From the NCBI GenBank assembly GCA_037142675.1, contig JBAXAF010000002.1, forward strand, positions 13,300 to 77,299: a stretch of DNA of 64,000 nt. Direction: 5' to 3'. The number at the start of each line of letters is the position of its first letter. Position 1 is the stretch's first letter. Made by a program: the position numbers and the translations under genes. A model generated the notes under the pieces. The model did not search any database. It was not told the origin of the DNA and saw nothing but the letters and a program-made list of their open reading frames with translations. Positions 13,838-36,537 of the stretch are shown here, piece after piece. This stretch comes from Candidatus Berkelbacteria bacterium. Lineage in GTDB: Bacteria; Patescibacteriota; UBA1384; XYA2-FULL-43-10; CAINNR01.

Positions 13838-14035
13838 TTTGCCACCTTCGTGTCGTTGTTGTCTAACTAATATATATCAAATAAATATAATCAACGCTAT
13901 CTGGATGTAGTTCTAGTATTATCCGCTGTTTCCCGCCATTAATAATTAGCTCTTTGAGCTAATTTTTTGTTGACTAAGTCACTATTTTTTGATATAAAAT
14001 TATTACTGCAACACCGATAACACGGAGGAAACCCC

Positions 14036-14701: not shown

Positions 14702-15305
14702 ACTGGTCCCCGCCAATTCGCCAGCTCAAGACGTACGCTTGACCCACCCCGGTCAAGCGTTTTTTATTAAAAAAATCCCCTCGTCTTGCACTCCGCAAGG
14801 CGAGGGGTCTGTTCTGTGCTGCTTTCCACTCCGGCTCGCAGCGGGTTTCCAGCTATTTCTTGCGACCGACAGTCACTGATTCTTCGACAGCAGTGTCAAG
14901 CCGCCACTCCTTTGGCAGCGTAACAGTTACGCAAGTCGCTCCCCCCGGACTTGATATGACCATCAGCGATTCGAACCACCTCTGCCCCATCGCGTCGAGC
15001 CGCCGCCGCACATAGCTGGCTATGGAGCAACAGAAACCGTACGTAATTCGGATCGCTAACCATAATTGCGGTTCTCCCATTCTGTATTCCAGCTGGCTTA
15101 GAAAAATCAGCTAGAAGCAGAACAAAAAAACTGGCCTTTAGCCAGAACTTTTTACAATACTATTTTTTTATTAATTCACGAAAAATTCTGGCTTAGGTCA
15201 GTTCCTTAAAAAACCAATAATTTTGCGCAACTTGTTTCATTGATTTGATATTAACAAATAGTTTCTGGGCTGTCAAATTCAGCCATTTTCTGCTAATATT
15301 GCTGC

Positions 15306-20258: not shown

Positions 20259-20335
20259 TGGTGCACGGGGCCAGATTCGAACTGGCGACATCTTCCTTGA
20301 GAAGGAAACGCTCTAACCAGCTGAGCTACCCATGC
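20259..20335 (-). tRNA. tRNA-Glu (anticodon CTC)
   Basis: reverse complement GCATGGGTAGCTCAGCTGGTTAGAGCG TTTCC TTCTCAA GGAAG ATGTC GCCAGTTCGAATCTGGCCCCGTGCACCA. Confidence 0.8.
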
Positions 20336-20539
20336 ACCGCGGACGATCAAGTTGCCAGGTGATCGCCCAGGCCTGTCGCTGGCTCAGGGGTGTGACCAGC
20401 AGAAGAATCTGGCGGGACGCTGAGCGCCCCAATTGCCAAGCAAAGCTTGGCGGACTGGATGCACTTCCCTTCGAACACCTTTTAGCCTGGCTTGACCAAT
20501 TAAGGCAGGCTTTCGAAGAGAACGACAGTCCTGATTGCT

Positions 20540-20764
20540 CTAAACAATATCTAAAGACTTAATCTTTAGCACTTTTGCAATACTTTGAAGCTTATCAATC
20601 GAAAGATTAACTTCACCACGTTCGATCTGAGCGTAATAGCTAGCATTGAGGTCTGCTTTTTCAGCCACCTCTGCCTGGGTAAGTCGAGCTTTTTCTCTAG
20701 CCTTTCTGACTTTATCACCCAATCTTTTCCGAGTTGTTTCGTTATTATCGCTCATGATGTTCAT
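20540..20764 (-). CDS. XRE-family helix-turn-helix transcriptional regulator
   Basis: 74 aa; LTQAEVAEKADLNASYYAQIERGEVNLSIDKL is a Cro/C1-type HTH. Confidence 0.8.
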   Translation of the reverse strand: MNIMSDNNETTRKRLGDKVRKAREKARLTQAEVAEKADLNASYYAQIERGEVNLSIDKLQSIAKVLKIKSLDIV

Positions 20765-20826
20765 ATACTAACAAAAAACTATCGAAATATCCATAAGTAA
20801 TTAAAAATATAATCAAAAGGAGGAAT

Positions 20827-21549
20827 ATGCCAGTAATGTCGCCGTCTTATAAAAGACACTTGGAAAATTTGCAAAATGAATTTGATGCGAAGAAATATCA
20901 TGAATTGCAAAAACTTGATCTTTTTAACGAGAAAACTTTTTACAAAGCTTTTGTTGGAGATATGCTTAATGCCAAAAAAGAGGTTATTATCCATAGCCCG
21001 TTTGTCTCGAAATTTAGAACGGATTTTCTCAAACCGACAATCGAAAAATTGATCGACCGGAACATTGACATCTTTATCTTTACCAGACCGATTGAAGAGT
21101 ACGATCCTACTATGCAACCCCAGATCGAGTGCGCGCTAAAACGCCTTGGAGAGCTTGGTGTCTGCATTTTCTACCCAGGACGATACATTCATCAAAAGGT
21201 GGCGATTGTTGACAGAGAAGTCCTATAGGAGGGCAGTTTGAATATTTTATCGCACAGAGCAAGTAACGAAATGATGAGGAGAACGGCTCACAGGGAATCC
21301 GCAACACAGGTCATGAACTATATCGGCCTGAATGATCAGATTGCGGCGGCTTATAAGTTGAAATACGAAAAATTGTACAAGGGGTTGATAAATACCTCCA
21401 AACAAAGTTTTAAGCTGAAAATGAAGATATTTTTGCTAGGACTGGCAGTTCCGATAATTGTATGGTTGATCGTCGGCTTGGTAAATATAAAACCTGTGCA
21501 AATATATACTTCGCTAGCAAATTCGATCATTGCATCATTGCAGCATTAA
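20827..21549 (+). pseudogene. PLD-family (HKD) nuclease interrupted by a single in-frame TAG inside the HxKx4Dx6GSxN motif; C-terminal TM helix
   Basis: ORFs 20827-21228 and 21238-21549 are in the same frame; read-through gives HQKVAIVDREVL*EGSLN, a perfect HxK(x)4D(x)6GSxN with the stop at a variable position. Confidence 0.6.
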
Positions 21550-21570
21550 AACTGTAACCACTCACTGTGT

Positions 21571-21654
21571 CGTCATTGCGAGGAGGTACGACGAAGCAAT
21601 CTGATCAAAATAGATTGCCGCGCCTCTCGCTTCACTCGATGACTCGCAATGACA
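21571..21654. repeat. MITE-like palindromic element, TGTCATTGCGAG...CTCGCAATGACA family (copy 1)
   Basis: terminal inverted repeats GTCATTGCGAGG / CTCGCAATGAC with internal GAAGCAATC...GATTGCCGCGCCT core; extended inverted repeats GTAACCACTCACTG/CAGCGAGTGGTTAC. Confidence 0.7.
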
Positions 21655-21922
21655 GCGAGTGGTTACTTAAAACTCTTCTTCTTTCAACTTTTCAAATCGC
21701 ATTTTGGAAAAATATTTCTGGCAATCTTTGTTATTACACCTCGCGAAACAACTTTTTTTGTCAGAAATCAAAATCGACGAGATAACTCCCGTTCGTGCGA
21801 CTACTTCGCCACATTTATCACAAACCTTATATTTCATAGATACACCTAGATTATCACAAAAATCCGAGCATTGGATACTCGGATTTTCTGCAGAAAAACA
21901 GCAGTAATATTTTTTAAGAATA

Positions 21923-23122
21923 TTATTCGTACTTTAGTGCGTCAAGTGCATTGATCTTGACCGCTCGATAAGCAGGGTATAGTCCGGTAGCTAAACCGAC
22001 TAGAATTGAGAATAATCCGACAATCAATTCAAGAGTCCAAGGTGTGACAAAAAGATTGATAGTATCAGCGCCAGCCCTTGAAGCAAAGACTGACAGCAGA
22101 GCATTTATGCCGGTTGCCATTAACAGTCCAAGAATTATGCCGAAGAAACCGCCAAAAGCACCGATCAAGAATGATTCAGTCACAAAGAGTTTGTAGATAT
22201 CAGCGTTTTGCATTCCAAGAGCTTTAAATAGACCGATCTCTCTAATTCTTTCAAGAAGATTAATTGTCAAAGTGTTGAATGTTCCAAGGGCAGCGACCAA
22301 AAGCGCTATCATGCCAAAAATCGCTAAGACTATCCTGAACAGAACGAATACTTGGCTAATCTGATCAACCGTATCTCCGACATATTCAGTCGATAATCCT
22401 AAATTTTCTAGTTGCTTGCGAAGTTCCGGAATGCTCTCTTTGGTGTCAGCTTTTAGTTTTAGGGAGATAAATTTATCGGCCCCATTTTTGGCAAGTAGCG
22501 AAATCGGCACATAAATGATTGGGCTTTGTTCATCTTTTTCGACTCCAACAATTTTCAGCGGAACTTTTTCGACAGTTTTAACCGAATCAGCATTGTCTGT
22601 GCGAATCTCTGCCGGAATAAGTAAATCTAAATCCATCGTTTGACCAATAACTTGATCCTCGTTCTCGCCTAGCAATTTCAAGGCAGCTCGGTTAATCATC
22701 GCTTGTCCATCTGCAAGTGGCAGAGAGCCTTTATCAGCACTAATGCTCGCCATTGGCCAGTAATCCTTACCTGCAGCGACAACGACGGTCTCAGCCGAGG
22801 TTCCGGTGCCATCACGACCAAGCCTACCGGCAATACTGTCAACTGGAACGACAGTTTGGACATGAGGAAGTGCTTCTGTCTTGTCAATCACGCTCTGATC
22901 AATTTTCAAAGTTTTTAAATTTGCCGATGGGATATCTAGAATAGTAAAAGCCTCAAAATTAGTCACCTGGCTTGTCACCAAACGCTCCAAGCCGTATCCC
23001 AGCGATACCAAGAAGATAATCGATCCAATACCAATCACAATTCCCAAAGTGGTAATTATTGTTCTGGATTTCTTTACCCATAGATTTTTTAGAGATAGCC
23101 GAACAATTACTTTTAATTTCAT
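21923..23122 (-). CDS. ABC transporter permease, FtsX/MacB/LolCE family
   Basis: 399 aa; N-terminal TM, large periplasmic domain, C-terminal 3 TM FtsX-like domain; ATGA-coupled to upstream ATPase. Confidence 0.75.
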   Translation of the reverse strand: MKLKVIVRLSLKNLWVKKSRTIITTLGIVIGIGSIIFLVSLGYGLERLVTSQVTNFEAFTILDIPSANLKTLKIDQSVIDKTEALPHVQTVVPVDSIAGRLGRDGTGTSAETVVVAAGKDYWPMASISADKGSLPLADGQAMINRAALKLLGENEDQVIGQTMDLDLLIPAEIRTDNADSVKTVEKVPLKIVGVEKDEQSPIIYVPISLLAKNGADKFISLKLKADTKESIPELRKQLENLGLSTEYVGDTVDQISQVFVLFRIVLAIFGMIALLVAALGTFNTLTINLLERIREIGLFKALGMQNADIYKLFVTESFLIGAFGGFFGIILGLLMATGINALLSVFASRAGADTINLFVTPWTLELIVGLFSILVGLATGLYPAYRAVKINALDALKYE

Positions 23123-23874
23123 ATCATTTTCTCCAAGTTCTTAAGCTCGCCCTCGAGCTGCGCTCGGAGTTCTCCCTTTTTCTCGGAGACGATTTTACCG
23201 TCTATCATGGCGATTGTTTTGCTCGCCAGAGGAAGATAAGCTAGGTTATGGGTAACCATTATCACGGTTCGTTTATAGATTTTATTGAGTTTTTGTAGCA
23301 GATCCATGACATAATCAGCGGAGTGCGTATCAAGATTGCCGGTCGGCTCATCGGCGACAATAATTGATGGATTATTAACCAGCGCTCGCGCCAAACCGAC
23401 CCTCTGTTGTTCACCACCGGAGAGCTGCATCGGCCATTTTTTGGCATACTGGCCCATTTCAACCTCGCCCAGTATTGCTTGTGCCTTAAACACCGAGTCA
23501 TGGTATCCTGATCCGGTTATCATTAGCGGAACCGCGACATTTTCAACTACATTGAGAGCTTTTGCCCAATACGATTGCTGGTAGACGATACCGAATTTGC
23601 TGGAGCGAACCTTGGCGCGTTGAGCCTGATTCAAAGAGCCCATATTCTTTTCATAGAGATAAACATTGCCCTTAGTTGGTGTTTCCAAGCCGACAATGTG
23701 ATTCAGAAGAGTTGATTTTCCACAACCTGATGGGCCATAAATAACAACAAAATCGCCTTCATTAATACTAACAGTAATGCCTTTTAAGACTTCTGTTTTT
23801 GTTGACTTGTCTGCCGAGACAAACTCTTTGAACAAACCATCAATTTTAATAATTTCTTTTTCCATTATTTCCAA
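23119..23874 (-). CDS. ABC transporter ATP-binding protein (MacB/LolD-like)
   Basis: Walker A GPSGCGKST, signature LSGGEQQRVGLARAL, Walker B IIVADEPTGNLD. Confidence 0.9.
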   Translation of the reverse strand: MEIMEKEIIKIDGLFKEFVSADKSTKTEVLKGITVSINEGDFVVIYGPSGCGKSTLLNHIVGLETPTKGNVYLYEKNMGSLNQAQRAKVRSSKFGIVYQQSYWAKALNVVENVAVPLMITGSGYHDSVFKAQAILGEVEMGQYAKKWPMQLSGGEQQRVGLARALVNNPSIIVADEPTGNLDTHSADYVMDLLQKLNKIYKRTVIMVTHNLAYLPLASKTIAMIDGKIVSEKKGELRAQLEGELKNLEKMI

Positions 23875-23878
23875 TTAT

Positions 23879-26800
23879 TCAATTATTTGGGTAAAACATC
23901 TTGCTTAAAAAGCCGAGTGATTTTTGCAGTGAATTAACAATAATGTCGACGACTGATTGTTGGATTTTACCGGTAATGGTTGTGGTGTCGTTCGAAGTTC
24001 CCATGTTCCCAGCGTTATCATGCGACACGGCCCGAAGGTGATAAATCTTTGATGGCTCAAGTCCGGAAGCAATGACTACATGGCTGGTCGAAAGCGCCAT
24101 ATCCTCTTTGGTTTTGAAATCATAATCAGATCCGCTGATTCCGGTTGAATATTCAATCTGACTTGTTGATGGTTCATCTGTTTGCCACGAAACAACTAAT
24201 TGCGCTTGTTGAGTTTGACCGAAGCCATTTGATTTTATTTCGACTGCAAGTGATGACAATTTTGGTGGTCGGGTGTCAAGCGGTGTTGTATAGGTGTTGG
24301 CATCTGACTCAACTTGATTTCCAAAGTTATCGACGCCTTTTGCTTTTAGAACATAAACCGATTTGTCCTGAAGGTCGGAAACCGTAATTTCGTGCGCTGT
24401 CTTATAATCAGCTTGCGAAGCGGTTTGTGCAGATGAGCCGATTGTATAAGAGACTATAGAAGTTGTCGCCACATTGGTATCCCAATTAAATTTCAGTGTC
24501 GTTGTCGGAGCGTCTTTAACTGTCTCAAAGCGGAAATTTGAGATCTTCGGCATGGTCAAAGTATTAAATGTATAATCATCCGAAATAAGCTGATTATTAT
24601 CCGTATCAGTCCCGATTATTTGAAAATGATATGTGGCCGAGTCGTCGAGGCTAGTCAAATTGATTGAGTGGCTAGTAGTTTGCGAACCGGATTTGTCGGA
24701 AATATTTCCACCATAGTTTGGAGTTTTTCCATAATTGATTGTCGAGGTGGCAATGGTTGTGGATGTCCAAGAAATTGTTGCGGCGTTCAAAGTGATATTT
24801 GAAACTTTTACATCGGAAATTTTCGGTCTTAGTCCGGTCTTAAACGAGTAGACATCGCTTCGTCCCTGGTTACCGTCTGAATCCTCCCACATTGCTTGGT
24901 AATAGTAGATCGTCTCAGGGTCAAGGCCAATGACTTCAACTGAGTGCTTTTTGCTCTTCTCCGGTTGACCAAATCCTTTGGCATTTTTCAAATCGTCTTT
25001 GCTTTTAGCAAAATAGCCGAAACTTGAACCTTCGCGGTCGGTTTCCCAAGAGATAGTAGCTGAAAATGCCTTTGGCGAAGCAGTTGGGGCCTCTGTTATG
25101 GCCGGTGGGTTAGTATAACGACCGGTCGGTGTCAAATTAACTATCGACGAGGCAACTGAATGTTGACCGGCATTGTCTTTCGATTTGACATAGTAATAGT
25201 ATTTTTGGCTTGTCAGGTCGGTGTCGGCATAAGTACTACCAGCGGTTGTGCCGACCGAGGAATAATTTGAGCCGTCAGTCGAACGATAAATTTCATAGCC
25301 GTTAAATCCGGTGCCGGTGTTTGCTGGCGCAATCCACTTTAGAGTTGCAGCAAACAGCGAAGCATCTCGGTTTGAAATATCAAAGATTTGCAAACTCGCC
25401 GGTGCGCCTGGCGCGGTGGTATTGGCAGTGAAGGTTGTTTTGGCGCAACCATCGGTGTCGGAGTTACCGGAGATTGCATTACAGGAATCAAATGAATAAT
25501 TTCCCGCTTCATCTTTGGCAACGATATAGAAGGTATTTTCTCCTTGTTGGGTGGCATATGGTCCGGCTGGAAGTATTCGGTCGGTCACAAACGAAGTATT
25601 CGACGGTGTCGGTAGCGCATTTATTGAGTAATAGTAACCCGATATTGTTCCGCTTCCGGTTGACGGCTCATCCCAGGAAAAAGCGAAACTGTTTGAATCA
25701 GACGATGACGGTGTGACAGTCAAATTCTTCGGTGCAGTCGGCGCGGTGTTATTGTAATAAAAGTTTGTCTGAACCGGAGTCGGATCGACATTGCCGGCGT
25801 TGTCAACGGCACGAAGATAAAAGATATTTGTGCCGGTTCGGTAAGCGACATCACCAAGTTCCAGTGATCCGCCGGTCATTGTTGCCGACCAATCGGAATA
25901 AATGCCGTCAGTTGCGCCTGTTTTGTATTGATAACCATAAATGCCACTTCCACCGGTGTCGCTCGCCATATCGGCACCCGAAGTCGGCCAGATGAAAGTA
26001 AAGGAATTGGTGCGCGTAAAGCCCGATGGTGAAACCGAAACATATTTTGGTGAATCCGGAGTTGCCGTTTCATATTTATAGGTGAAGATGGTTGAGCCGC
26101 TCCCGATATTACCGGCATTGTCTTTTGAGCTAATGCGTAAATAGTAAGTTGAGCCGGAAGCCAAAGAACCGGCGGTATAATTCAATCCTGTTTGGTAACT
26201 GCCGGCCGTATGCGGATCAGCAGAATTCGAAGTTCCGAAATAAACATAGTAACCGGCTGTGCCGGAAACCGTATTGGCGTGGCTGCCATCGGTGGCATCC
26301 GTGGAGGCGTTAAAAGTAAAATACGGAGCCGCGTAGTTGTGCCAATCGCCGGAGACAATATCGCTTCCACTAGAAGATTGACTTTTGGCAGTTGCCAAAG
26401 TCGGATCCGGTGGCGCCATATTATCCTGATCGTATTTGTAAGTGTATACGGTTGCAGCCGTAGAAATATTACCAGCGACATCTTGGGTTTTTATTCGCAA
26501 ATAATAGCTTTGATTATAGTTAGTCGATAAATCGCTTGCCGTGTAGTTTGTGGTAGTTTGCCAGACACTCGGATCGGCTGAAGCATTTGTACCGAAATAA
26601 ACATAATAACCGGCAACTCCCGACGGAGTTATCCCGTTTGCATTGTCACTTGGCGCAGTCCACGAAAAGTAAGGTGTTGGATAGTTATACCAAGTCGCCC
26701 CGTCAAGTGTCACGCCACTCGAAGTGCTTTTAGCGGTAATTGAGCTTGGATTATTTGGTGGTAAAAGATCTGGATTGTAATCAGGTGATGTAATGCCGGA

Positions 26801-27447
26801 AAAGTTAATCCAACCCCAGTCTTCGCTCCAGGCATAACCGGAGAAATTTCCTCCTGTAGCTATCACCACATTGGCGCCGGTCGGACTTGCATTAAAATCA
26901 ATATAGCCGCCGTTTAGCATTTTCGCCTTTCCTGATAAATGTCCGGAAGTGTCAGCGACTACCGGTCCCGAAGGATTGCTATCTGAGCCAAAGCTAATCC
27001 AGCCGAGATCGCCACCCCAGGCATAACCGCCCATCTGGCGAGAATAATTATCTATCGTCACATTGCTATGGTAAGTTCCTGCGTCAAAGTAAATTTTTTC
27101 GCCAGTGTTAACAATAGTTCCGGTAGTTCCCACAACCGCTACCGCACTGCCGGTAGCCTCAGAGTGCTTACTCGAGAGAAACATACCGCCAGCTACGATA
27201 ATAAAGCCGCAAAATATTGTGAATGCCGTCCAGCCGATTTGTTTGCGGTAAGGTTTTGCTTTTTTGGTAATCTTTGCGAGCCAACTATTAAATTCTGCCG
27301 GACTGGTAGAATCTTGATTTATACTTTGTCTTTTATGATTAACTTTTAGAGAAAATGACAAATGTTTTTTAAAATTACTAAAAACTTCACAAATCTTTTT
27401 TGTGATCTGTCGATAATTTCGATTAATTTTGGATATTAGCTTTTTCA

Positions 27448-27448
<1 letters not shown>
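23879..27448 (-). CDS. very large cell-surface protein with multiple FN3-like repeats (N-terminal membrane anchor)
   Basis: 1189 aa; repeated ~90-aa modules with YYxxxxxxDxAGNxS-type patterns; start codon overlaps RT stop (ATGA). Confidence 0.6.
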
Positions 27449-28642
<1,194 letters not shown>

Positions 28643-28666
28643 TTTTTTCTTGTCATTTGTTTTTCT

Positions 28667-28742
28667 TGTCATTGCGAGGCTTTGCGAAGCAATCTTTTTT
28701 GTGTTTTTTATGGGATTGCCACGCCTGCTGGCTCGCAATGAC
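28667..28742. repeat. MITE-like palindromic element, TGTCATTGCGAG family (copy 2), in the TR-RT spacer
   Basis: TGTCATTGCGAGGCTTTGCGAAGCAATC...GATTGCCACGCCTGCTGGCTCGCAATGACA. Confidence 0.7.
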
Positions 28743-28776
28743 ATACTCATTTTAGGTAGAAAAGGCATCCCCGTTG

Positions 28777-28906
28777 CCTGACACAGCGAACATTGTTGTT
28801 ATTGCCCTCTCCATTGTTGTTCGTGTTGCCATTATTCAACTGGACGTTCCACGCGTTAGATCCAACGCTGTTCTCCGTCGCCGACCAGTAGTTGTTGGAT
28901 GGCTGA
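28777..28906 (-). other. DGR template repeat (TR)
   Basis: 130 bp ~90% identical to VR (29499-29628); all 13 mismatches are at TR adenines on the coding (minus) strand; AAC/AAT codons in TR. Confidence 0.9.
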
Positions 28907-29083
28907 TGAAATGCTGCCGACTTTTGTTGCTCGGTTTTCTATCTCTGGCAAGCAGAGTAAGAAAACTTGTAATTATTCCTTTTGGAGCGGCAGCCGTAAC
29001 GGGGCGGTCGCACTCCCGATCATAACCCCGCACAGAGGCGAAGAATACGAGCGGCTCTTGCTATGCCTTTTCTACCTAAAATT

Positions 29084-29431
29084 TTAATGTGCTTTCGACC
29101 AATTCATCCATTTTTCGAACTGTTTCGATATTTCAATCAGTTGCTCAAAAAAGAATTTATAACTTTGTATTTTCATTGTCTTAAGCTCGTGCAGCATTCT
29201 GGCTTTAAACTTAATTCTCTCAATGATTACCAACCCCTCCTTTAATTTGTTTGTTTTGTCTTCAAGGTTATTGGCTTCAACAATTATGTCCATCAACTTT
29301 GTCAGCAATCCCTCTATTTCCTCGGCTAAGCCGTATTTGTAATCTTTCGGGAATCCTCGTGCCAACCGGAAGAAGTATAAATTTATGTCGTAAACGCTTT
29401 TGTAAATTGGAAGGTGGTCATATCTTGCCAT
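29084..29431 (-). CDS. avd: DGR accessory variability determinant (Avd)
   Basis: 115-aa helical protein starting MARYDHLPIYKSVYDINLYFFRLARGFPKDYKYGLAEEIE, positioned between target gene and TR as in canonical DGRs. Confidence 0.75.
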   Translation of the reverse strand: MARYDHLPIYKSVYDINLYFFRLARGFPKDYKYGLAEEIEGLLTKLMDIIVEANNLEDKTNKLKEGLVIIERIKFKARMLHELKTMKIQSYKFFFEQLIEISKQFEKWMNWSKAH

Positions 29432-29495
29432 AAAAATTTTCGCTCGACCGCCTTCGGCGGAAACAATAATAACTAAATAATCAAATTACCCTGCG

Positions 29496-30536
29496 TTACC
29501 TGACACAGCGAACATTGTAGTTACCGCCCTCTCCAAAGTTGCTCGTGTAGCCATTATTCAACTGGACGCCCCACGCGTAAGATCCAACGCTGCTCTCCGT
29601 CGCCGACCAGTAGTTGTAGGATGGCTGAGTCAGATTCCAGTAAGCACCATCAATGAAAGCCTGCATCAGCTCGTTTTGGGTTGGTAAACGCCAGACACCG
29701 GCACCGGCAGGGTTGGCACTGCTGTTGCAAAGCTGTGCAGCGGTTTTATTACCGACAGCCACATTGGCTGCGCCGGTAGCGTTCCATGTCCAAGAAGATC
29801 CGCCGGAAGCGACAAATTGAATTACTCCGGCATTATTCTTAAGGCATTGGCTCCAAGTTAAACCGGTTAGCGGGTCTTTATTGGTATTTCCGGCCCGATT
29901 ATCGTCACCGGTTACCGGAGACGAGTTGGTTGTAAAAGTTAAAGAACAGTTGTTGCCGGTCGTGCCACCGTCCGCCGGATCAAGCACATCGGTAGAGCAA
30001 GGGCCACCGGAAACTGGCGCATAATTACCGGAAATTTGCGTGCCATCATTTGACCAAGCGACTTTACCACTTTTAACATCGCCGGCTCCGGCAACCGTGC
30101 CGGCACCAGTCAAGGGATATGTTGCCGAAGGATATTGACCGGTTAAGCCAACGCCAAAGAGGGTTCCACTTTTGACTGTTCCAACTGAAAGATTCCCTAA
30201 ATTATATGTGCCGCTGGTTGCGCTGCGCGAACCGTTTGCGGTGAATGTTTTTGTAGATGAAACATCACCAGCCCCAGCCGTCGTGCTCGGTGTCCACTTG
30301 GCAGCAGTTTTGATACGGTTCCAATAAGTTCCCCAGTCTGGTGTGTCCGAGTCGGAACCGAAGGTTAAACCCGTAAGATCTGTATAAAGCGTTTTCATGC
30401 GTGAAGTTACTCCGGACTCCGGTGTGCTACCGGATTGTTCGGCAAAAACTTTGTAAGTTCCAAAAACTCCGGCGCAAAGTAGCACTGCCACAGCCGCGAT
30501 GATGAACTTATTCCTTTTTTTCATATTTGCCTCCAA
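29496..30536 (-). CDS. DGR target protein: secreted/surface protein with C-terminal DUF1566/C-type-lectin-fold variable region
   Basis: N-terminal signal/anchor; C-terminus GLTWSQC...WRLPTQNELMQAF...YWSATESSVGSYAWGVQLNNGYTSNFGEGGNYNVRCVR; VR at 29499-29628 matches TR. Confidence 0.85.
   Translation of the reverse strand: MEANMKKRNKFIIAAVAVLLCAGVFGTYKVFAEQSGSTPESGVTSRMKTLYTDLTGLTFGSDSDTPDWGTYWNRIKTAAKWTPSTTAGAGDVSSTKTFTANGSRSATSGTYNLGNLSVGTVKSGTLFGVGLTGQYPSATYPLTGAGTVAGAGDVKSGKVAWSNDGTQISGNYAPVSGGPCSTDVLDPADGGTTGNNCSLTFTTNSSPVTGDDNRAGNTNKDPLTGLTWSQCLKNNAGVIQFVASGGSSWTWNATGAANVAVGNKTAAQLCNSSANPAGAGVWRLPTQNELMQAFIDGAYWNLTQPSYNYWSATESSVGSYAWGVQLNNGYTSNFGEGGNYNVRCVR
29499..29628 (-). other. DGR variable repeat (VR) at the 3' end of the target gene
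   Basis: aligned to TR; VR has T,G,G,T,T,G,T... where TR has A on the coding strand (Y/S/G/F codons versus AAC/AAT). Confidence 0.9.
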
Positions 30537-30550
30537 TTATAAATTCTTTT

Positions 30551-30616
30551 TGTCATTGCGAAGTACGAAGCAATCTCATTCCACACAGATTGCCGCGCCT
30601 GCTGGCCCGCAATGAC
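30551..30616. repeat. MITE-like palindromic element, TGTCATTGCGAG family (copy 3), immediately upstream of target gene start
   Basis: TGTCATTGCGAAGTACGAAGCAATC...GATTGCCGCGCCTGCTGGCCCGCAATGACA. Confidence 0.7.
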
Positions 30617-30714
30617 AAACCCTAATCCTCGCAATGTAAAACTATAAATATTAAAAAAGACACTCAAAAGAGTGCTTGAATTACCAGTTCTAAATGCAAA
30701 AACGGAGAGCTCCT

Positions 30715-30745
<31 letters not shown>

Positions 30746-30990
30746 GAGTTCGGAACTTCGAACTCGAGCTAAAGCGCGCTCGTTACAGTTACGTTTAATG
30801 TTCCCTCCTCTATATAAAACACAGTCTTTGAAATGATTACTTATAATTATACATCAACTAAACCAATAATACATCATTTATTATTTTGTTGTAAATGCCT
30901 AGAAATCAAATTAATAGCAACTGGGATTTTCTTAGGAATTATCGTATCAATTTGGCACTTTAATCGTATCATTTTGATACGAGAAAGAGA

Positions 30991-31866
30991 TTAATTGCTT
31001 TGCCCGATTTTCCAGACTCCCTTTTCTCGAAATGCCGCCAGAGTTTGACGTTTTGCCATATTTAGAAGGACATTCAGGGGCTGTTTTGTATTTTTTGCGT
31101 ACTCAGAAAGTGAAATAATTTTGAGACCTTCTAAATAAGCAATTCTTTTATGTAAAGATTCCAATAGTGCAAGATAGAGAACTTTTTCCATGTCTGCAGT
31201 TTTTTTGTTTTCTTTATATTCCTGAAAGGTTTTGTAATATAGATGTTTCTCTTTATCACGAATAATCACAGGTGGAAAGCCAATCTGTAGCAGGAGATAA
31301 TTAATTAAAACCCTGCCAATTCGGCCATTACCATCGCAAAATGGATGAATATGCTCGAATTCCAAATGAAATTTAGCAATCTTTTCTAGAAAATAAGACA
31401 TGTGATCGCCGGAATAATCAAGAAGTGCTGATTCAACCATAGTTGCCACATGTTCCGGTGCTGGCGCAATGTGCGTTCCAACTCGGACATATTCTCCGGC
31501 AGATCTAAATATACCGGCAATTTTATCATCAATTCCAGCAATCAACATCTTGTGTAAAAACAAGATTAATTCTTCATCCAAATCACGGCTAAGAGTTTTG
31601 TCCTTGATATATTCAAAAACTCTAGCTAAATTTTTAGCTTCATAAACTTCTCGAACAGATACTTTGCGCGCAACTTCAAGTTCTAATAAAATCTTTTCAG
31701 TTTCCTCAATGGTGAGGGTTGAATTTTCGATAGCATTTGAGTTGTAGACTGATTCCGGAATCTCGGCTTCAGCTAGCATATCCAAAAGAGATCCTTTGCC
31801 GATTTTCAAAGTATCATACTGCTTTTTTAAGTCATTAATTTTTTGTTTGATATCTTTATTGATCAT
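30991..31866 (-). CDS. Fic/DOC family protein (AMPylase-type)
   Basis: Fic motif HPFCDGNGRIGR; 291 aa. Confidence 0.8.
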   Translation of the reverse strand: MINKDIKQKINDLKKQYDTLKIGKGSLLDMLAEAEIPESVYNSNAIENSTLTIEETEKILLELEVARKVSVREVYEAKNLARVFEYIKDKTLSRDLDEELILFLHKMLIAGIDDKIAGIFRSAGEYVRVGTHIAPAPEHVATMVESALLDYSGDHMSYFLEKIAKFHLEFEHIHPFCDGNGRIGRVLINYLLLQIGFPPVIIRDKEKHLYYKTFQEYKENKKTADMEKVLYLALLESLHKRIAYLEGLKIISLSEYAKNTKQPLNVLLNMAKRQTLAAFREKGVWKIGQSN

Positions 31867-31899
31867 GGTTAAATCTTATCATATTAACGATATATTGTC

Positions 31900-31950
31900 A
31901 ATACACCGTGAATATAGTCTACTTTGAGTATATATTCACGGTGTTTCTGA
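31900..31950. promoter_or_regulatory. 14-bp-arm inverted repeat between the NTase gene end and fic start (operator or terminator)
   Basis: ACACCGTGAATATA-gtctactttgag-TATATTCACGGTGT. Confidence 0.4.
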
Positions 31951-32003
31951 TTATTCAATGACATTTAGACTAGCTATAGAGGGCTTATTTTCGTTATATG
32001 GTG

Positions 32004-32648
32004 CTATTTATTAACTTTTGCCAAATAATTTGTCACGGTTTCTGAGAGATACTTTTTAACTAATTCGAAACTAATATCATCATCGTGCTTAAAGAGAATT
32101 GGTTCTTCCAGAATATCATCAAAATACACTAGGCTTTTAAGGATTAGGTTAACGTCAATTGTAGGAAACTTTTCTTTTGTTAATTTGAAAAGCTCTTCAA
32201 GGCTTATTTTGTGAAGAATAAAATACAAATCAACATAATCTTTAAGAACAGATCGGCTTGTAATTGCTGAGAGCTTCATAGCACCAATGTCTTCGAGGGA
32301 GGCCATTTTAAAATTATCTTCATCCAACAGTGGATTAATCGGTTTGTATGGAAAAGCAAAGAAGCTAATTTTAATTGTGTCGTCAATGATAAATGTTAGA
32401 GTATCTTTTTCTTCCTGAATTTTTGCAATTTGATGATTCTGAAAAATTTGCTCGACTTTTTTGGTCAAGTCTTCAGTAGAAAAAGATTGTTCAGAAAAGA
32501 AATCAAAATCAATACTATCTCGATGCCCCAGTTGCAATGCTAGAGCGGTGCCACCGGCAAGATAAAAATCATCTTTGAAAACTTTAAAAAGAGGTAGAAT
32601 ATTTATACGCTTTTGGTCTAGAATATCCCAATAAAATTGTTTATCCAT
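32004..32648 (-). CDS. nucleotidyltransferase of the AbiEii/DUF1814-like family (putative toxin/defence component)
   Basis: N-terminal LAGGTALALQLGHRDSIDFDFF resembles the GGTAL...RxSxDxD NTase motif of AbiEii-type proteins. Confidence 0.5.
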   Translation of the reverse strand: MDKQFYWDILDQKRINILPLFKVFKDDFYLAGGTALALQLGHRDSIDFDFFSEQSFSTEDLTKKVEQIFQNHQIAKIQEEKDTLTFIIDDTIKISFFAFPYKPINPLLDEDNFKMASLEDIGAMKLSAITSRSVLKDYVDLYFILHKISLEELFKLTKEKFPTIDVNLILKSLVYFDDILEEPILFKHDDDISFELVKKYLSETVTNYLAKVNK

Positions 32649-32928
32649 GAAGTACTCTTTCCAGCTTAGAAATGGGTTTGATATTTAAATAAAGCGACCA
32701 AAGAGCTAGAGACTTTTTGTTCCATTGACCAGTTGGAATCTGCTCGGCTATTTTTTGTATCTCATCCAAACTATATGTTTCGAACAACCAATCTGTAGCA
32801 TCTTCGGTGCCGTAATTTAAAACCTGGGCAATAATTAATTTTTTGTGTAATTCTAAATCGATCTTATTGATGTCATAAGACCAGAGAACATTTGCAACAG
32901 ATTTTGGAATTTTTTCGTTGGTTGTCAT
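32641..32928 (-). CDS. small partner protein of the nucleotidyltransferase (putative antitoxin/regulator)
   Basis: 95-aa ORF overlapping the NTase start by 8 nt. Confidence 0.35.
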   Translation of the reverse strand: MTTNEKIPKSVANVLWSYDINKIDLELHKKLIIAQVLNYGTEDATDWLFETYSLDEIQKIAEQIPTGQWNKKSLALWSLYLNIKPISKLERVLHG

Positions 32929-33004
32929 ACCTAAAAATTACTTGTCTAACAGATATATTATAGCATATTTGGGGCTATTTATATAGGGGAAAATGATATT
33001 AATC

Positions 33005-33817
33005 CTATTCCCAAATCTCTCCGGTAATACCATTTACTTTGATCTTGTCGATAGTCGTAAATTGTATACGAAGATCGCTCGGGTTGTCCTCGTCTTCTAA
33101 AAGTCCTTTGGTCATTCGTTTGGCATAGATCATGGTGGCTAGAGTCGGGCAAACAATCATGATAATCGGGAAGGTCTTGGAAATTTCATCCCATTCGTAG
33201 CCATTGTAAAGCTCTATAAAATTTTTGACTTGGCGCCTGATCGAATAACGAGGCAGAGTCGGCGCAATTATCGCAAAAAGAAAATATTCCGATATTGTCC
33301 GTTTGCTGGCTTTCTTTTTCTTGAGTCTTTTAACCACCGGATCCACTTTATATTCAGTCAAAAAGTTAAAACGATACTCGGAATTAGCCAGGTCCGTTGC
33401 GGTAGCAATCAAATAGGAGAGTTCATTTTCTTCACTAGACTCTCGGCTTCTGTTTGCCGCAATTTTCAAACCCAAAGCAATCTCCCCGACGAGCTGGCAT
33501 TTTTCGATAAAATCGGTTGAGCGGTCTTTAAGCCTATAAAACTTTCTTAGAACCTCGATCGAGCAATCATCTTGAGTTTTTAAGAATCTGATTCCATTTA
33601 ATCCCAGGTAATAGATCGCCGGTTTGGTATTTTCTCCAAACTTATTTGAATAGATTCGATTAAGGTATTCTTTTTGTGTTAGGTCTTTTAACCAGTCGTT
33701 GATTCTTTTGTGATATTTATGATTGAGGAATGCTTGAATTTGTTTTCGATCTAAGAATTTGTATTTGTATAGTAGTTTGAGTATTTCTTGTTGTTTTGTA
33801 GTTATTTTGTTGGTCAT
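33005..33817 (-). CDS. putative replication-relaxation / wHTH mobile-element protein
   Basis: N-terminal QQEILKLLYKYKFLDRKQIQAFL wHTH-like segment; mobile-element context. Confidence 0.3.
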   Translation of the reverse strand: MTNKITTKQQEILKLLYKYKFLDRKQIQAFLNHKYHKRINDWLKDLTQKEYLNRIYSNKFGENTKPAIYYLGLNGIRFLKTQDDCSIEVLRKFYRLKDRSTDFIEKCQLVGEIALGLKIAANRSRESSEENELSYLIATATDLANSEYRFNFLTEYKVDPVVKRLKKKKASKRTISEYFLFAIIAPTLPRYSIRRQVKNFIELYNGYEWDEISKTFPIIMIVCPTLATMIYAKRMTKGLLEDEDNPSDLRIQFTTIDKIKVNGITGEIWE

Positions 33818-34094
33818 TGTTTTGAATTAGTTGTTTATTTAATTTGCAATTTACCATTACTACCTACACCGACCAAACCTATATTTGTAAAGGTAAGTGA
33901 TACAAGTCGCATATCTTTTAAGGCTAAATTAAACATATTTCAGTATCAGTTCACTGATACAATTAAATACCTGATTATTCGGCTTGTCAACAGTCTTATT
34001 TAAACTTTTACCCTCTTGACATTGTGAATATAACAATAGTATACTATGAATATAATCACAATAAGGAGGGTATACGGGGACTTCTCATCTTCAA

Positions 34095-34415
34095 TTGATA
34101 GGCCAGAAAAACACCTTGTTTTCTACGGTGGAAATCAATCCCTCTGCCCATATTAAAGCTGAGAGGCCAAGGCCAGAAGCCTTAATTGCTACACATAGCA
34201 AAACCTTTGAGAGTGCCTTGAGCAGGATCTTCCCTGGCAAACAAGAGGAAACCAGGATCCAAAAGGCGCGCCTAATTATGGGAGATGATGTCAAAGATTT
34301 ATCGGATGAAGATTTAGAGGTTTTCCTTACCGAGTTTCAATATCTGATCGACTGCTGGTTAGACGAATACGAAAAACAAGTTTTCAATAACAAAACATTA
34401 AGAGAATTAATTTAA
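34095..34415 (+). CDS. hypothetical protein upstream of recombinase
   Basis: 106-aa ORF, 15-nt gap to recombinase start. Confidence 0.3.
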   Translation: MIGQKNTLFSTVEINPSAHIKAERPRPEALIATHSKTFESALSRIFPGKQEETRIQKARLIMGDDVKDLSDEDLEVFLTEFQYLIDCWLDEYEKQVFNNKTLRELI

Positions 34416-34429
34416 TAAAGGAGGGATGA

Positions 34430-36145
34430 ATGGACTTTCCATCACCAATCAAAGGGGAGCAATCAGAAAAAGCGGTCGTTTATATTCGAGTATCGACCGA
34501 AGAGCAAGTCGAAAACTATTCGCTAGGCACTCAAGAAGAGATTTGCAGAAAAGAAGCCGATAAACGAAAGCTCGAGGTTGTGAAGGTTTTTCGCGAAGAG
34601 GGACGTTCCGCAAAGACGATTACCGGACGACCTACACTAATTGAAATGCTCGAGTATTGCCGAAAACACAAAAGAGAAATCAGTTCGGTTATTGTTTACC
34701 GACTGGATCGAGTTTCCCGTCAAACATCTGATTATTTGGTGATTAGAAGAAAACTGGTGGAATGCGAAATAGAACTAATTTCAGCCACAGAGCCAACCGG
34801 CAACAGCCCGACAGAAAAGTTTGTTGAAACTATGTTGGCCGGCTTTGCCCAGATGGATAACGATATTCGAAGCGAACGAGCCAAAAATGGGCTTAGAGCC
34901 AGATTCCAGGCTGGCTTAACCAGTTATGTAACGATGGGCTATGATAATAAAAGTGGCTATACAACAAAAAATCCCGAAACATTTGATAAGCTTCAAGCTT
35001 CTTGGCATTTATTTTCCACAGGCACGAAAACACTGCGAAATATTGCCAATATTCTAACTGAACAAGGAATTGCCCAAAGACATAAAGGCGGGCGTATGCT
35101 CCCACAGCAGGTTAACAGAATGTTTCGCAATAAATTCTATGCCGGTTATGTCATCTCTAAAAAATATGGGCAAGAAGTCCAAGGCCAGCATCCACCAATG
35201 GTTACCGAGGAATTATTCTACAAAGTCCAAGCGATTCTAGATGGTAGAAACCACAACATCTCAAGGCCGCTAGCAAAGCGCCATCGAGACAACCCGAATT
35301 TTCCCCTGCGCCGTATCGTCAAATGCGAAATTTGCGGTACTTCTTTTACTGGAGGGAAAAGCAAAGGCAAGCGCGAATACTATGGCTATTACTTTTGCCG
35401 AAACAGATGCAAAGAATCGAATGTCGCTTCGGAAAAGATAACCCATGATACCACCGACTATTTGGGTAAAATATCCCTAACAGAAAAAACCGCCAAATTG
35501 TTTAACGCTTTTCTGCGAAGAACTTATTTTAGCAGGGCTAAAACCCTACAAAAAAGACGAGAGCAGGCCGATGACGAGCTAAAAAAGTCATATGAAACAC
35601 GCCAGGCATTAATCGATAAGAATCTGACCGGCATATACTCCGACGAGATCTTTAAGGAACAAAACAATATGTTAGAGGCAAAAATAAAGAGTATTCAATT
35701 CACTAAAAACGATGAATTACTTGATAAATATGCTCTTGGGCCGATTACTCAATTTGTTGAAACCAAGCTAACCGATCTGCCGAAAACCTTTGAGACATCT
35801 ATAAAAAAAGATCCTGAACCGGATCTCGGACAGATCAGAATGCTCCTGTGTTCGATATTCCCCTCTGGAATGCCATATGGCCGAAATGGCTATTCGAACA
35901 CAGAAATCAGCCCATTTTTCAGAGCGATTTTGGACTTGCAGCCCAAGAATTCTAATCTTGTCTCGTTTGGCGGAGAGAGTGTGATTCGAACACACGAGGA
36001 TAGGTATCCATGGGTTTACCACCCATTCCCTTTGACCACTCGGGCATCTCTCCGCTTAAGACTTACAGCGAGCCGTGCCGGAGCCCAACCCGACAATCAT
36101 CTCCCCGTGACGTCGTGTCACAGCCTTGATGACATCAAACATTGA
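34430..36145 (+). CDS. large serine recombinase (integrase); 3' end of ORF runs antisense through tRNA-Tyr (C-terminal ~60 aa probably spurious extension)
   Basis: resolvase catalytic domain AVVYIRVSTEEQ, recombinase domain, zinc ribbon CEICG...CRNRC, coiled-coil; no stop codon until 36145. Confidence 0.8.
   Translation: MDFPSPIKGEQSEKAVVYIRVSTEEQVENYSLGTQEEICRKEADKRKLEVVKVFREEGRSAKTITGRPTLIEMLEYCRKHKREISSVIVYRLDRVSRQTSDYLVIRRKLVECEIELISATEPTGNSPTEKFVETMLAGFAQMDNDIRSERAKNGLRARFQAGLTSYVTMGYDNKSGYTTKNPETFDKLQASWHLFSTGTKTLRNIANILTEQGIAQRHKGGRMLPQQVNRMFRNKFYAGYVISKKYGQEVQGQHPPMVTEELFYKVQAILDGRNHNISRPLAKRHRDNPNFPLRRIVKCEICGTSFTGGKSKGKREYYGYYFCRNRCKESNVASEKITHDTTDYLGKISLTEKTAKLFNAFLRRTYFSRAKTLQKRREQADDELKKSYETRQALIDKNLTGIYSDEIFKEQNNMLEAKIKSIQFTKNDELLDKYALGPITQFVETKLTDLPKTFETSIKKDPEPDLGQIRMLLCSIFPSGMPYGRNGYSNTEISPFFRAILDLQPKNSNLVSFGGESVIRTHEDRYPWVYHPFPLTTRASLRLRLTASRAGAQPDNHLPVTSCHSLDDIKH
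35968..36053 (-). tRNA. tRNA-Tyr (anticodon GTA), type II with long variable arm
   Basis: reverse complement GGAGAGATGCCCGAGTGGTCAAAGGGA ATGGG TGGTAAA CCCAT GGATACCTATCC TCGTGTGTTCGAATCACAC TCTCTCCGCCA; D-arm pattern as in bacterial tRNA-Tyr; position 33 is G (atypical). Confidence 0.7.
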
Positions 36146-36348
36146 TCAGCTCGCAAACATCTGGAGCGGGCGACCGGATTAGTACCGGCAACCAAATGCA
36201 ACCCTGTCCTTACTGCTTTGTTGTTGCTAGCAGCAGTCGACTCAGCGGCATCCGCTCGACGCCCGCTCTCCGAAAAATGTGCGGCGCCGGTTCCCAGACC
36301 GAGCCTGGGTTTCCGATCCGGGTCGGCGCCGCGAAACTTGTCAAGATT

Positions 36349-36473
36349 TGGTCGGGGCGACCAGATTTGAACTGGTGACCTTACGGGCTGCCAGGAATGA
36401 GTTTTAGCTCCTTTGCCAAGGGAAACTCAAACCGGCAGTGGACCGCACGAGCTACCAACTGCTCCACGCCCCG
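36349..36473 (-). ncRNA. tRNA-like gene with ~50-nt hairpin insertion in the anticodon loop (intron-containing tRNA or tRNA pseudogene)
   Basis: reverse complement has canonical acceptor (CGGGGCG/CGCCCCG), D arm GAGC-AGTTGGTA-GCTC, anticodon stem TGCGG/CCGTA, variable loop AGGTC, T arm ACCAG-TTCAAAT-CTGGT, discriminator A + CCA; 56 nt between anticodon-stem strands containing CTGCCGG...TGAGTTT...AAACTCA...CCTGGCAG helix. Confidence 0.5.
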
Positions 36474-36537
36474 ACCGCGAAATGCGACAAAGAATAATAT
36501 AGCAGATACAGTTTTTTCTGTCAATAGTTTTGTGTTT

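Follow-up and report, generated by a model that had tools for sequence, protein, structure and literature searches.

Attachment sites inside integrase genes are known from the SSV-type "suicidal" tyrosine integrases (SSV1, pTN3, pT26-2), where the att site lies within the integrase gene and matches a tRNA gene, an arrangement stated to be exclusive to Archaea (PMC8371274). These tyrosine recombinases of archaeal viruses and plasmids are cut into inactive N and C halves. For serine integrases, 14 of 297 S-Int islands were placed in t(m)RNA genes in 2020, a use "not reported previously" and in need of proof (PMC7192596), and tRNA is never mentioned in a large survey of large serine recombinases (LSRs; PMC10083194). 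Here we analyzed a 64-kb stretch of DNA ("the window") from a metagenome-assembled genome of Candidatus Berkelbacteria, a member of the Candidate Phyla Radiation (CPR), its source being known by the name attached to an identical ppdK. In this window the open reading frame (ORF) of an LSR runs antisense across a tRNA-Tyr gene. Positions 20447-35974 are very probably an integrative plasmid-like element that carries its own attachment site (attP) inside its LSR gene and is integrated at the 3′ end of tRNA-Tyr. The case is comparative, and is made by the boundaries, an attP junction, the absence of the block in relatives, the same cargo at another tRNA and family-wide abutment of tRNAs. No description of this integrase family was found in the literature searched, and an earlier description may exist.

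Domain tests place the enzyme among the LSRs. Like the phiC31, Bxb1, A118/LI and SPbeta SprA integrases, it has Resolvase, Recombinase and zinc-ribbon domains and a long coiled coil, and as in serine integrases generally the att sites are short, with a motif 5 bp closer to the center in the host site (attB) than in attP. Unlike known serine integrases, it belongs to a family that targets tRNA 3′ ends throughout, has attP inside the integrase ORF and an extra C-terminal helical domain with a detachable tail, and comes with no recognized recombination directionality factor in the element. With the SSV-type enzymes it shares the att site inside the integrase gene, the partitioning of that gene on integration and a compact int-att module. 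In this case, however, a bacterial serine recombinase is involved, and integration detaches no more than its final 36 codons (fewer in distant members) and leaves the known domains intact. Because the fold differs and only the tail is lost, the integrase works partly like the SSV type and is not a member of it.

Three further systems are comparable in part. P4-like and Islander-type tyrosine-integrase islands also have the integrase at the edge beside a tRNA 3′ end, a regenerated tRNA, variable cargo and absence from relatives; the present element differs in its serine-family enzyme, in an 8-bp repeat instead of a 15-50 bp tRNA fragment and in an int ORF that runs antisense over the tRNA. In the integration-dependent immunity of mycobacteriophages, which use a tyrosine integrase, attP lies inside the repressor gene and integration alters the C-terminus of the encoded protein; the repressor tail is a degradation tag with a demonstrated regulatory role, whereas here the affected gene is that of the integrase itself. 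Inovirus integrases of the phiRSM type target tRNA-Ser, and thus also pair a serine-family recombinase with a tRNA gene as attB, but they are resolvase-sized S-Core enzymes of filamentous phages without Recombinase and zinc-ribbon domains. The phiRSM group has been named among the site-specific S-Core integrases (PMC7192596).

In the window, the first stop codon of the recombinase ORF is at 36143-36145, and the ORF spans the whole of tRNA-Tyr on the opposite strand. The positions of two tRNAs and the frame open to 36145, as given in an initial annotation, were recovered by ARAGORN, Rfam and reading of the ORF. The tRNA-Tyr was absent from the whole-window Rfam scan at default filters, and a local scan recovers it. 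The features that define the element ends and the integrase are given below, with L-numbers for related loci and P-numbers for integrase homologs or their contigs.

17870-19771: DnaK, left flanking gene.
20259-20335, minus strand: tRNA-Glu(CTC), a host gene outside the island (ARAGORN; Rfam 66.6 bits).
20410-20446, plus strand: second TGGCGG followed by 31 nt of unexplained origin (20416-20446), from alignment to relatives.
20447-20454, plus strand: core TTGGCGGA of the left junction (attL), the left direct repeat, from alignment of the attL, attR and attP junctions.
20449-20562, plus strand: detached integrase 3′ end, codons GG-LDALPFEHLLAWLDQLRQAFEENDSPDCSKQYLKT-stop, joined to the rest of the integrase gene in the un-integrated form alone.
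20455-20479, plus strand: P′ arm, identical in the L088 attP and conserved in L084 and L096.
20470-20476: TTCGAAC in the P′ arm (T-loop mimic, presumed zinc-ribbon-domain motif), 16 bp from the crossover.
34095-34415, plus strand: orf106, encoding a small conserved protein, separated from the downstream integrase by 14 nt.
34430-36145, plus strand: LSR ORF, 571 amino acids (aa), with Pfam Resolvase, Recombinase and Zn-ribbon.
34430-35974, plus strand: element-encoded part of the recombinase, about 513-515 codons (Pfam; 949 homologs; AlphaFold model of P0095).
35949-35966, plus strand: P arm, within the last integrase codons, with ATTCTAA (35949-35955) 16 bp left of the predicted crossover.
35967-35974, plus strand: core TTGGCGGA of the right junction (attR), the right direct repeat, matching in antisense the tRNA-Tyr 3′ end (..TCCGCCA) and 1 nt more.
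35968-36053, minus strand: tRNA-Tyr(GTA), the target gene (B′ arm) (ARAGORN; Rfam 46.9 bits, full model, local scan).
35975-36145, plus strand: read-through of the integrase ORF, 57 codons, antisense tRNA-Tyr plus spacer.
35985-35991: T-loop TTCGAAC of tRNA-Tyr, 11 bp from the predicted crossover.
36785-39442: ppdK, right flanking gene.

The two ends of the element meet in a related locus, L088, whose integrase is 96% identical (aa) to that of the window. There the integrase 3′ end joins left-end sequence directly (..AATCTTGTCTCGTT-TGGCGG-ACTGGATGCACTTCCCTTCGAACACC..), and the junction reads ..AATCTTGTCTCGTTTGGCGGACTGGATGCACTTCCCTTCGAACACC.., that is, the right end of the window's element up to the core and then its left end from the core. 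BLAST places L088 195-3202 on window positions 32969-35974 and L088 3195-3752 on 20447-21002, and the overlap is the 8-bp core. After the junction come an XRE-family regulator (100% aa) and then a PLD-family gene. By this alignment the L088 junction is attP and the two junctions of the window are attL and attR. Window positions 20447-35974 are accordingly read as a 15.5-kb mobile element with a copy of the 8-bp repeat TTGGCGGA, antisense to the 3′ end of tRNA-Tyr, at either end.

By itself the 8-mer carries no significance, as it has seven copies in the 64-kb window. The longer pattern TGGCGG-N(9-18)-TTCGAAC occurs exactly twice in the 64 kb, at both ends of the block and on the same strand, against 0.01 expected by chance. 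A second copy of the 22-nt tRNA-Tyr 3′ segment, which the initial annotation had proposed to look for, is absent within 3 mismatches, and the real repeat is the 8-bp core. The right end of the island lies at tRNA-Tyr, as had been proposed; its left end is at 20447, 112 bp from tRNA-Glu, which is a mere neighbor and no att partner. The tRNA-Glu and its upstream spacer are syntenic with relatives L160 and L161. On the other side, 35975-36473 (tRNA-Tyr and two odd tRNA-like genes) is a host array outside the element.

A more distant locus, L084, places the left end at the same base. Its integrase, 79% identical, reads into tRNA-Ser(TGA), and its Replic_Relax gene, small upstream ORF and XRE gene are homologous to those of the window, with XRE on the far side of a 7.7-kb segment. 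On that side the DNA of L084 begins to match the window exactly at TTGGCGG (window 20447). In both L084 (7.7 kb) and L096 (7.8 kb) the two element ends are present, with the same core and P′ arm as in the window.

In attP, ATTCTAA stands 16 bp to the left and TTCGAAC 16 bp to the right of the GG that ends TGGCGG. Because these distal motifs are symmetrically placed, the crossover dinucleotide is predicted to be GG at 20452-20453 and 35972-35973, if they are the half-site motifs. We infer that TTCGAAC is the zinc-ribbon-domain (ZD) motif and that the P and P′ arms are symmetrical. In the tRNA arm TTCGAAC is 11 bp from GG, compared with 16 bp in the element arm, which gives a 5-bp offset between attB and attP. 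A ZD motif 5 bp further inward in attB than in attP is the serine-integrase rule described for the LI integrase (PMC3783163). The same distances of 16 and 11 bp are found in a second subfamily that has another core (TGGTAG, at tRNA-Glu; attP in L105, attR in L104), and the attP-like forms of L132 and L133 have the 16-bp spacing. Since the 8 bp of identity include the final 7 nt of the tRNA, the gene is regenerated, and tRNA-Tyr remains intact after insertion. Recognition of attB mainly via the tRNA half-site is suggested by the lack of a clear motif in the B arms and by the use of several tRNAs by near-identical enzymes.

Some junctions in related contigs show irregularities. In L105, an 88-bp tandem duplication occupies positions 1891-2062. 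The integrase 3′ end, a core and the P′ arm come first, then a repeat of the last 72 nt of the integrase, another core and finally tRNA-Glu(CTC). The arrangement resembles a tandem dimer that a deletion between two copies of TTCGAACACC has collapsed. Many related contigs (e.g., L089, L091, L093 and L099) end within about 100 bp of the integrase-tRNA junction, and same-strain assemblies (L001, L002, L085 and L086) break inside a (GA)n tract of the reverse transcriptase (RT) gene described below. Breaks at both kinds of place are consistent with strain heterogeneity there.

The block is absent from relatives. L160, L161 and L163 (from GCA_026397235.1), whose ppdK is 95% identical (aa), carry DnaJ-x-DnaK, a tRNA array of 0.8-1.4 kb and ppdK-GrpE, and since the stretch from DnaK through the array to ppdK lacks the block in all three, the block is by this synteny an insertion. 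The initial annotation's proposal of an accessory insertion is borne out by the same comparison. Homology of the window to the relatives ends at 20415 on the left and restarts at 36479 on the right. These relatives were obtained through a protein search for closer ppdK sequences; a ppdK scan of GTDB genomes had a best match of just 72% (Shapirobacteria), uninformative for synteny, and an exact look-up with DnaK gave only same-strain contigs, all of them occupied.

The left homology limit coincides with a second TGGCGG core at 20410-20415, which precedes the left core of the element by 38 bp (20410 vs. 20448). At this TGGCGG the relatives carry the 3′ end of a tRNA-Ser(GCT), the body of which is missing from the window. 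The following stretch 20416-20446 (GACGCTGAGCGCCCCAATTGCCAAGCAAAGCT, its final T being the first base of the left repeat) was matched only in the same-strain contig L085. The whole of 20410-20446 is possibly the scar of an earlier integration or of aberrant excision at a neighboring target.

The overrun of the integrase ORF was then compared across the family. A protein search with the integrase returned 949 relatives, on CPR-type contigs wherever these were named. Their alignment to the query ends near aa 512, and their total lengths are 503-607 aa. Past aa 512 they share ..FGGExGIRTH.. (~10 residues) and then diverge by abutting tRNA. The shared stretch is what a tRNA acceptor end and T-arm yield when translated in antisense (TTT GGC GGA GAG .. 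GGG ATT CGA ACC), so that the seeming conservation at the start of the C-terminal extension is that of tRNAs. Among the 120 best homologs, the tails are for the most part translated antisense tRNA. We inspected 52 related loci with the integrase 3′ end, drawn from metagenomes and assemblies, for abutting tRNAs. In 40 of them an opposite-strand tRNA begins at the same alignment position of the integrase, and the tRNAs comprise Ser-TGA/GGA/GCT/CGA, Tyr, Asp, Glu, Phe, Gly, Arg, Lys, Ala and Leu. The remaining 12 include six that look un-integrated (attP-like), five that end at a contig edge and one that is divergent. On this alignment the reading frame past 35974 translates antisense tRNA and spacer and is no native part of the protein, and the overrun is the normal integrated state of a large integrase family and no peculiarity of the window. 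The suggestion in the initial annotation that the overrun marks an integration junction is upheld by the tRNA-dependent divergence of the homologs and by L088, which shows the true C-terminus; the homologs are conserved to about aa 512, and the native tail is seen in L088.

The integrase ORF of L088 (1658-3310) is uninterrupted and encodes 550 aa, ending ..FGG-LDALPFEHLLAWLDQLRQAFEESDSPDCPKRYLKT. The native tail is 36 aa long, and the window encodes it 15.5 kb away from the rest of the integrase gene. It is conserved in L084 and L096, with their 79% identical integrases, and recognizable in P0095 (about 60%). The DNA of the P′ arm is nearly invariant; beyond it, the synonymous to non-synonymous changes in pairwise comparisons are 3:1, 5:2, 4:1, 4:3, 3:4 and 3:4. 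As these changes are largely synonymous, the detached stretch is coding sequence and more than a binding site. Placement of attP within the last codons of the integrase gene is, across the aligned loci, universal in the family.

The part of the recombinase that stays in the element comprises the catalytic, recombinase and zinc-ribbon/coiled-coil domains and an extra helical domain. Pfam matches are to Resolvase (1.3e-30, aa 15-162), the Recombinase domain (1.3e-13) and Zn_ribbon_recom (22.4 bits, just below the cutoff of 25.3). The catalytic motif VYIRVSTEEQ is intact, and its serine is invariant across a 54-sequence alignment. In an AlphaFold model of the homolog P0095 (predicted local distance difference test score 83), the usual catalytic, recombinase and zinc-ribbon/coiled-coil domains, with beta-strands at 297-323 and long helices at 352-426, are predicted to be followed by the extra helical domain (429-495). 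The attP-core codons would form a low-confidence linker (496-511) before a terminal helix (512-526).

Two features near the attachment site may relate to integrase function. The motif TTCGAACAC also occurs inside the integrase gene at 35893-35901, where it encodes (Y)-S-N-T of a conserved GYSNT. It is retained in 18 of 22 distinct variants, the Ser codon of GYSNT being TCG in 20 of the 22 against about 20% usage, while neighboring third positions vary; its distance to the core varies as well. This suggests constraint at the DNA level and perhaps makes the motif a candidate accessory binding site. The small gene orf106 lies directly upstream of the integrase in most related loci and had no family match in Pfam, PHROGs or PADLOC. 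Its product is a candidate accessory or directionality factor.

The genes between the element ends are listed below. Each gene named in the initial annotation was found again by Pfam, and DnaK and ppdK flank the block.

20540-20764, minus strand: XRE-family helix-turn-helix regulator, the first gene inside the left end (Pfam HTH_3, 1.6e-14).
20827-21549, plus strand: PLD-family (HKD) nuclease, PLDc_2 (Pfam weak; 70% homolog beside XRE in L088).
21923-23122, minus strand: FtsX/MacB permease (Pfam).
23119-23874, minus strand: ABC ATPase (Pfam).
23879-27448, minus strand: fn3-rich surface protein of 1189 aa (Pfam).
27448-28768, minus strand: RT of a diversity-generating retroelement (DGR), in two frames (Pfam RVT_1).
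28772-28906, minus strand: DGR template repeat (TR), from TR/VR alignment.
29084-29431, minus strand: DGR accessory protein bAvd (Pfam bAvd, 2.8e-11).
29496-30536, minus strand: DGR target protein with a Lcl_C C-terminal domain (Pfam).
About 29494-29628: variable repeat (VR), from TR/VR alignment.
30991-31866, minus strand: Fic-domain protein (Pfam Fic, 2.2e-20; PADLOC, 3.6e-38).
32004-32648, minus strand: AbiEii nucleotidyltransferase (Pfam, 2.4e-18; PADLOC AbiEii, 2e-9).
32641-32928, minus strand: DUF6922 partner of AbiEii (Pfam).
33005-33817, minus strand: Replic_Relax, plasmid replication/relaxation-like (Pfam, 9.6e-8; PHROG replication-initiation matches).

Much of this cargo is found at another tRNA. 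L087 abuts tRNA-Ser(TGA), followed by tRNA-Ser(GCT), and carries at 98-100% nucleotide (nt) identity the last 335 codons of the giant surface protein, RT, Avd, target, Fic, AbiEii, DUF6922, Replic_Relax and orf106. Compared with window positions 26442-35998, most of the cargo is 99.9-100% identical (giant protein, Fic and AbiE 100%), with lower nt values for RT (98.8%), the integrase gene (94.3%), Avd (91.7%) and VR (79%). The last 335 residues of the giant protein are also 100% identical in aa. That the block is the vehicle of the DGR, as the initial annotation held likely, agrees with the presence in L087 of the same DGR cargo (99-100% nt) at a different tRNA. The joining of this cargo to another integrase allele implies recombinational exchange of the integrase module and DGR parts between elements, not a simple hop. 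LSR alleles 92-98% identical to that of the window occupy Tyr-GTA, Ser-TGA, Ser-GGA and Ser-GCT.

Across the family the constant backbone is XRE ... Replic_Relax - orf106 - integrase. The XRE product is 100% identical (aa) in L088 beside attP and 72-79% identical in L084 and L096 at the same end, and Replic_Relax, a backbone gene of the element family, adjoins the integrase module in many related loci. DGRs recur in L084, L096-L099, L113 and L135. Other cargo includes a PQQ beta-propeller protein in L088 and a VirD4/TraG-like ATPase in the P0004 contig. The ABC-FtsX-giant surface protein module has homologs (35-47% aa) beyond the tRNA and outside the element in L113 (12116-16780), and within the cargo in L091 (2321-5747). 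By these placements the module exists both as chromosomal genes and as mobile cargo.

We propose the following course of events. The element consists of the backbone XRE ... Replic_Relax - orf106 - LSR and the cargo DGR, Fic, AbiEii pair, PLD, ABC/FtsX and giant surface protein. Its attP lies inside the LSR 3′ end, the P arm being roughly the last 8 codons before the core, the core TTGGCGGA encoding F-G-G, and the P′ arm and beyond encoding the 36-aa C-terminal tail. The LSR would recombine attP with the 3′ end of a tRNA gene ending ..CCGCCA, here tRNA-Tyr, the TTCGAAC of the tRNA acting as the ZD motif of the B′ half-site at 11 bp, with the P′ arm copy at 16 bp. Integration splits the LSR gene: about 513 codons, which include every known domain, remain at the right end, and the native tail is left at the far left end (20449-20562). 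The integrated LSR would then read antisense through the tRNA to the chance stop at 36143-36145, with its terminal helix, as placed in the structural model, replaced by tRNA-antisense residues. For the element of the window the predicted attP junction is AATCTTGTCTCGTTTGGCGGACTGGATGCACTTCCC and the predicted empty attB is CCAAGCAAAGCTTGGCGGAGAGAGTGTGATTCG.

The exchange of tails may lower the stability or activity of the integrated-form enzyme, may dampen the LSR through antisense transcription of the tRNA array, or may have no effect. More tentatively, and with less confidence than in the integration itself, the CPR family could be a bacterial serine counterpart of the archaeal "suicidal" integrases in which the tail swap serves as a switch and recognition rests on the tRNA half. 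The episomal enzyme with its native C-terminal helix would then differ from the enzyme of the integrated copy with its tRNA-antisense tail, the integrated LSR would be convergent with the tRNA promoter, and the difference would form a built-in directionality or stability switch. Recognition of attB would be almost wholly of the tRNA half-site, with the T-loop as ZD motif, and small changes could retarget the enzyme among tRNAs.

Several observations weigh against the proposed course of events. No circular or attP form was seen for the window's own element. L088 is a 91-93% relative, its junction could stem from a tandem copy and not a free circle, and a search for circularity of L088 by terminal overlap found none. 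An exact empty attB, with tRNA-Tyr directly followed by the left flank of the window, was not found among the relatives, because their tRNA arrays differ and none has tRNA-Tyr at this locus; the exact gapped pattern from the tRNA-Glu 5′ end to the tRNA-Tyr 3′ end likewise had 0 matches in metagenome contigs. The attP/attR pair of L124 and L122 shows an offset of 4 bp, not 5 bp, and the B arms, on the host side downstream of the tRNA, show no convincing matching motif in the host flanks of the window and L084. L087 is a mosaic, with the same cargo and a different LSR allele. The terminal tail helix of the P0095 model is of low confidence and undocked, and the function of the tail could not be read from it. 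In the distant members L132 and L124 the native tail is just about 5-11 aa long, which speaks against a regulatory role throughout the family. Some cargo looks damaged, given the RT frameshift and the PLD amber codon.

Damage also bears on the alternative that fares best, in which the element is an immobile fossil whose integrase was killed by the splitting of its gene. The LSR is missing its native tail, a frameshift interrupts the RT and a stop codon the PLD gene, and no attP form of the exact element was seen. We nevertheless regard this as improbable: all LSR domains and the catalytic serine are intact, most sampled members are integrated and yet the protein is strongly conserved (112 invariant columns among 54 sequences), near-identical cargo sits at another tRNA, and VR is still diversifying between samples.

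It is less probable still that mobility is confined to the low-GC right part (about 30.6-36 kb; Fic, AbiE, Replic_Relax and LSR), the rest (DGR, giant protein, ABC pair, PLD and XRE) being host sequence or an older insertion. GC content falls to 0.32-0.36 at 31-34 kb, ABC/FtsX/giant-protein homologs occur outside the element in L113, and no second context was seen for 21003-26441 (the remainder of PLD, the ABC pair and the giant gene's 5′ part). Against this division, the P′ arm and LSR tail are at 20447-20562, XRE and PLD directly follow attP in L088, in L087 the DGR, the right part and the 3′ end of the giant gene form a single block beside a different tRNA, L091 has similar ABC/FtsX/giant/DGR cargo beside a 94% LSR, and relatives have none of the block. 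GC content was also considered as a boundary marker and rejected as misleading, since it is low only at 31-34 kb.

A prophage or an integrative and conjugative element is equally hard to sustain. The serine integrase does match a PHROG integrase family, and the element of a relative (P0004 contig) carries the VirD4/TraG-like ATPase. No capsid, terminase, tail or type IV secretion system gene was found among the block ORFs with Pfam and PHROGs, however. Virion and mating-pore genes were absent by Pfam on all major ORFs and by PHROGs on seven proteins, the latter giving only integrase, regulator and replication matches. Neither the P′ arm pattern nor the LSR protein had a match among IMG/VR viral contigs, so no relatives were found there, and the backbone of XRE, Replic_Relax, orf106 and LSR resembles a small integrative plasmid.

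There is next to no room for the idea that the extension past aa 513 is a genuine conserved part of the recombinase, which the tRNA merely overlaps. Homologs do share ..FGGExGIRTH.. for about 10 residues past aa 512, and the initial annotation had named a conserved C-terminal extension as what would speak against an integration junction. The start of the extension is indeed conserved, but as antisense acceptor and T-arm; beyond it the sequence is tRNA-specific and stops after 5-90 residues, and the un-integrated ORF runs into a different, conserved tail, which together refute a genuine extension. That the block is conserved core genome and the overrun a chance lack of stops can be dismissed despite the unremarkable block GC (0.32-0.48, inside the range of the remaining window and thus no compositional flag) and the weakness of the 8-bp repeat alone (7 copies), because relatives lack the whole block, L088 has the attP junction and the overrun repeats at the same codon in about 40 independent loci at many different tRNAs.

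Read as an integrated element of the tRNA-targeting family, the block gives base-pair limits and a mechanism for a mobile vehicle of a DGR, defense-type genes and surface proteins in the CPR, whose mobile elements are poorly charted. Comparative evidence from dozens of independent loci points to tRNA 3′ ends as the targets of an entire clade of large serine integrases. An attachment site inside the recombinase gene is shown to occur outside Archaea and the tyrosine family, contrary to what has been stated (PMC8371274). For annotation, gene callers add spurious C-terminal tails of 5-90 residues to these enzymes, and the long ORF covers a tRNA gene. For engineering, natural attP/attB pairs that are built on tRNA T-arms are available in the family, and its retargeting from one tRNA to another can be seen.

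The DGR is genuine, as it has an RT, an accessory protein and an adenine-specific TR/VR pair at the 3′ end of the target gene. TR and VR differ at 16 positions, every one at a TR adenine, and the VR sequence varies among the window, L001, L002 and L087. A (GA)20 tract at 28135-28174 splits the RT into two frames. The number of units is 17 in L001, 12 in L087 and at least 29 in L002, all out of frame, with in-frame lengths at 19, 16, 13 or 10 units. Since VR nonetheless keeps diversifying from sample to sample, the RT may undergo slipped-strand phase variation. A second "gaactc(GA)14" unit lies at 30718-30745, between the target gene and Fic.

Among the other cargo, the PLD nuclease has an in-frame TAG at 21229-21231 within its HxK..D..GSxN motif (..HQKVAIVDREVL*EGSLN..), where a nonsense mutation has arisen recently or the stop is read through; the L088 homolog is likewise truncated. 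The Fic protein matches the candidate defense families PDC-S04 and SoFic. The partner of AbiEii is DUF6922, not an AbiEi-type antitoxin.

Outside the element, two tRNA-like genes with insertions lie between tRNA-Tyr and ppdK on the minus strand (36162-36266 and 36349-36473), both missed by standard ARAGORN and Rfam. With introns permitted, ARAGORN reads one as Ala-GGC with a 47-nt insert in the anticodon loop and the other as a weak Ser-CGA with an 18-nt insert. The gene at 36349-36473 aligns poorly to the tRNA-Ala of relatives, and the 3′ part of the first tRNA-like gene is conserved in L163 and L164. A GC-rich hairpin followed by a U-run is located between the two, at 36282-36333. Elsewhere in the window, GC content spikes to 0.58 at 14001-15000 against a mean of about 0.40, and the tRNA-Gly(GCC) at 59500-59593 is 94 nt long.

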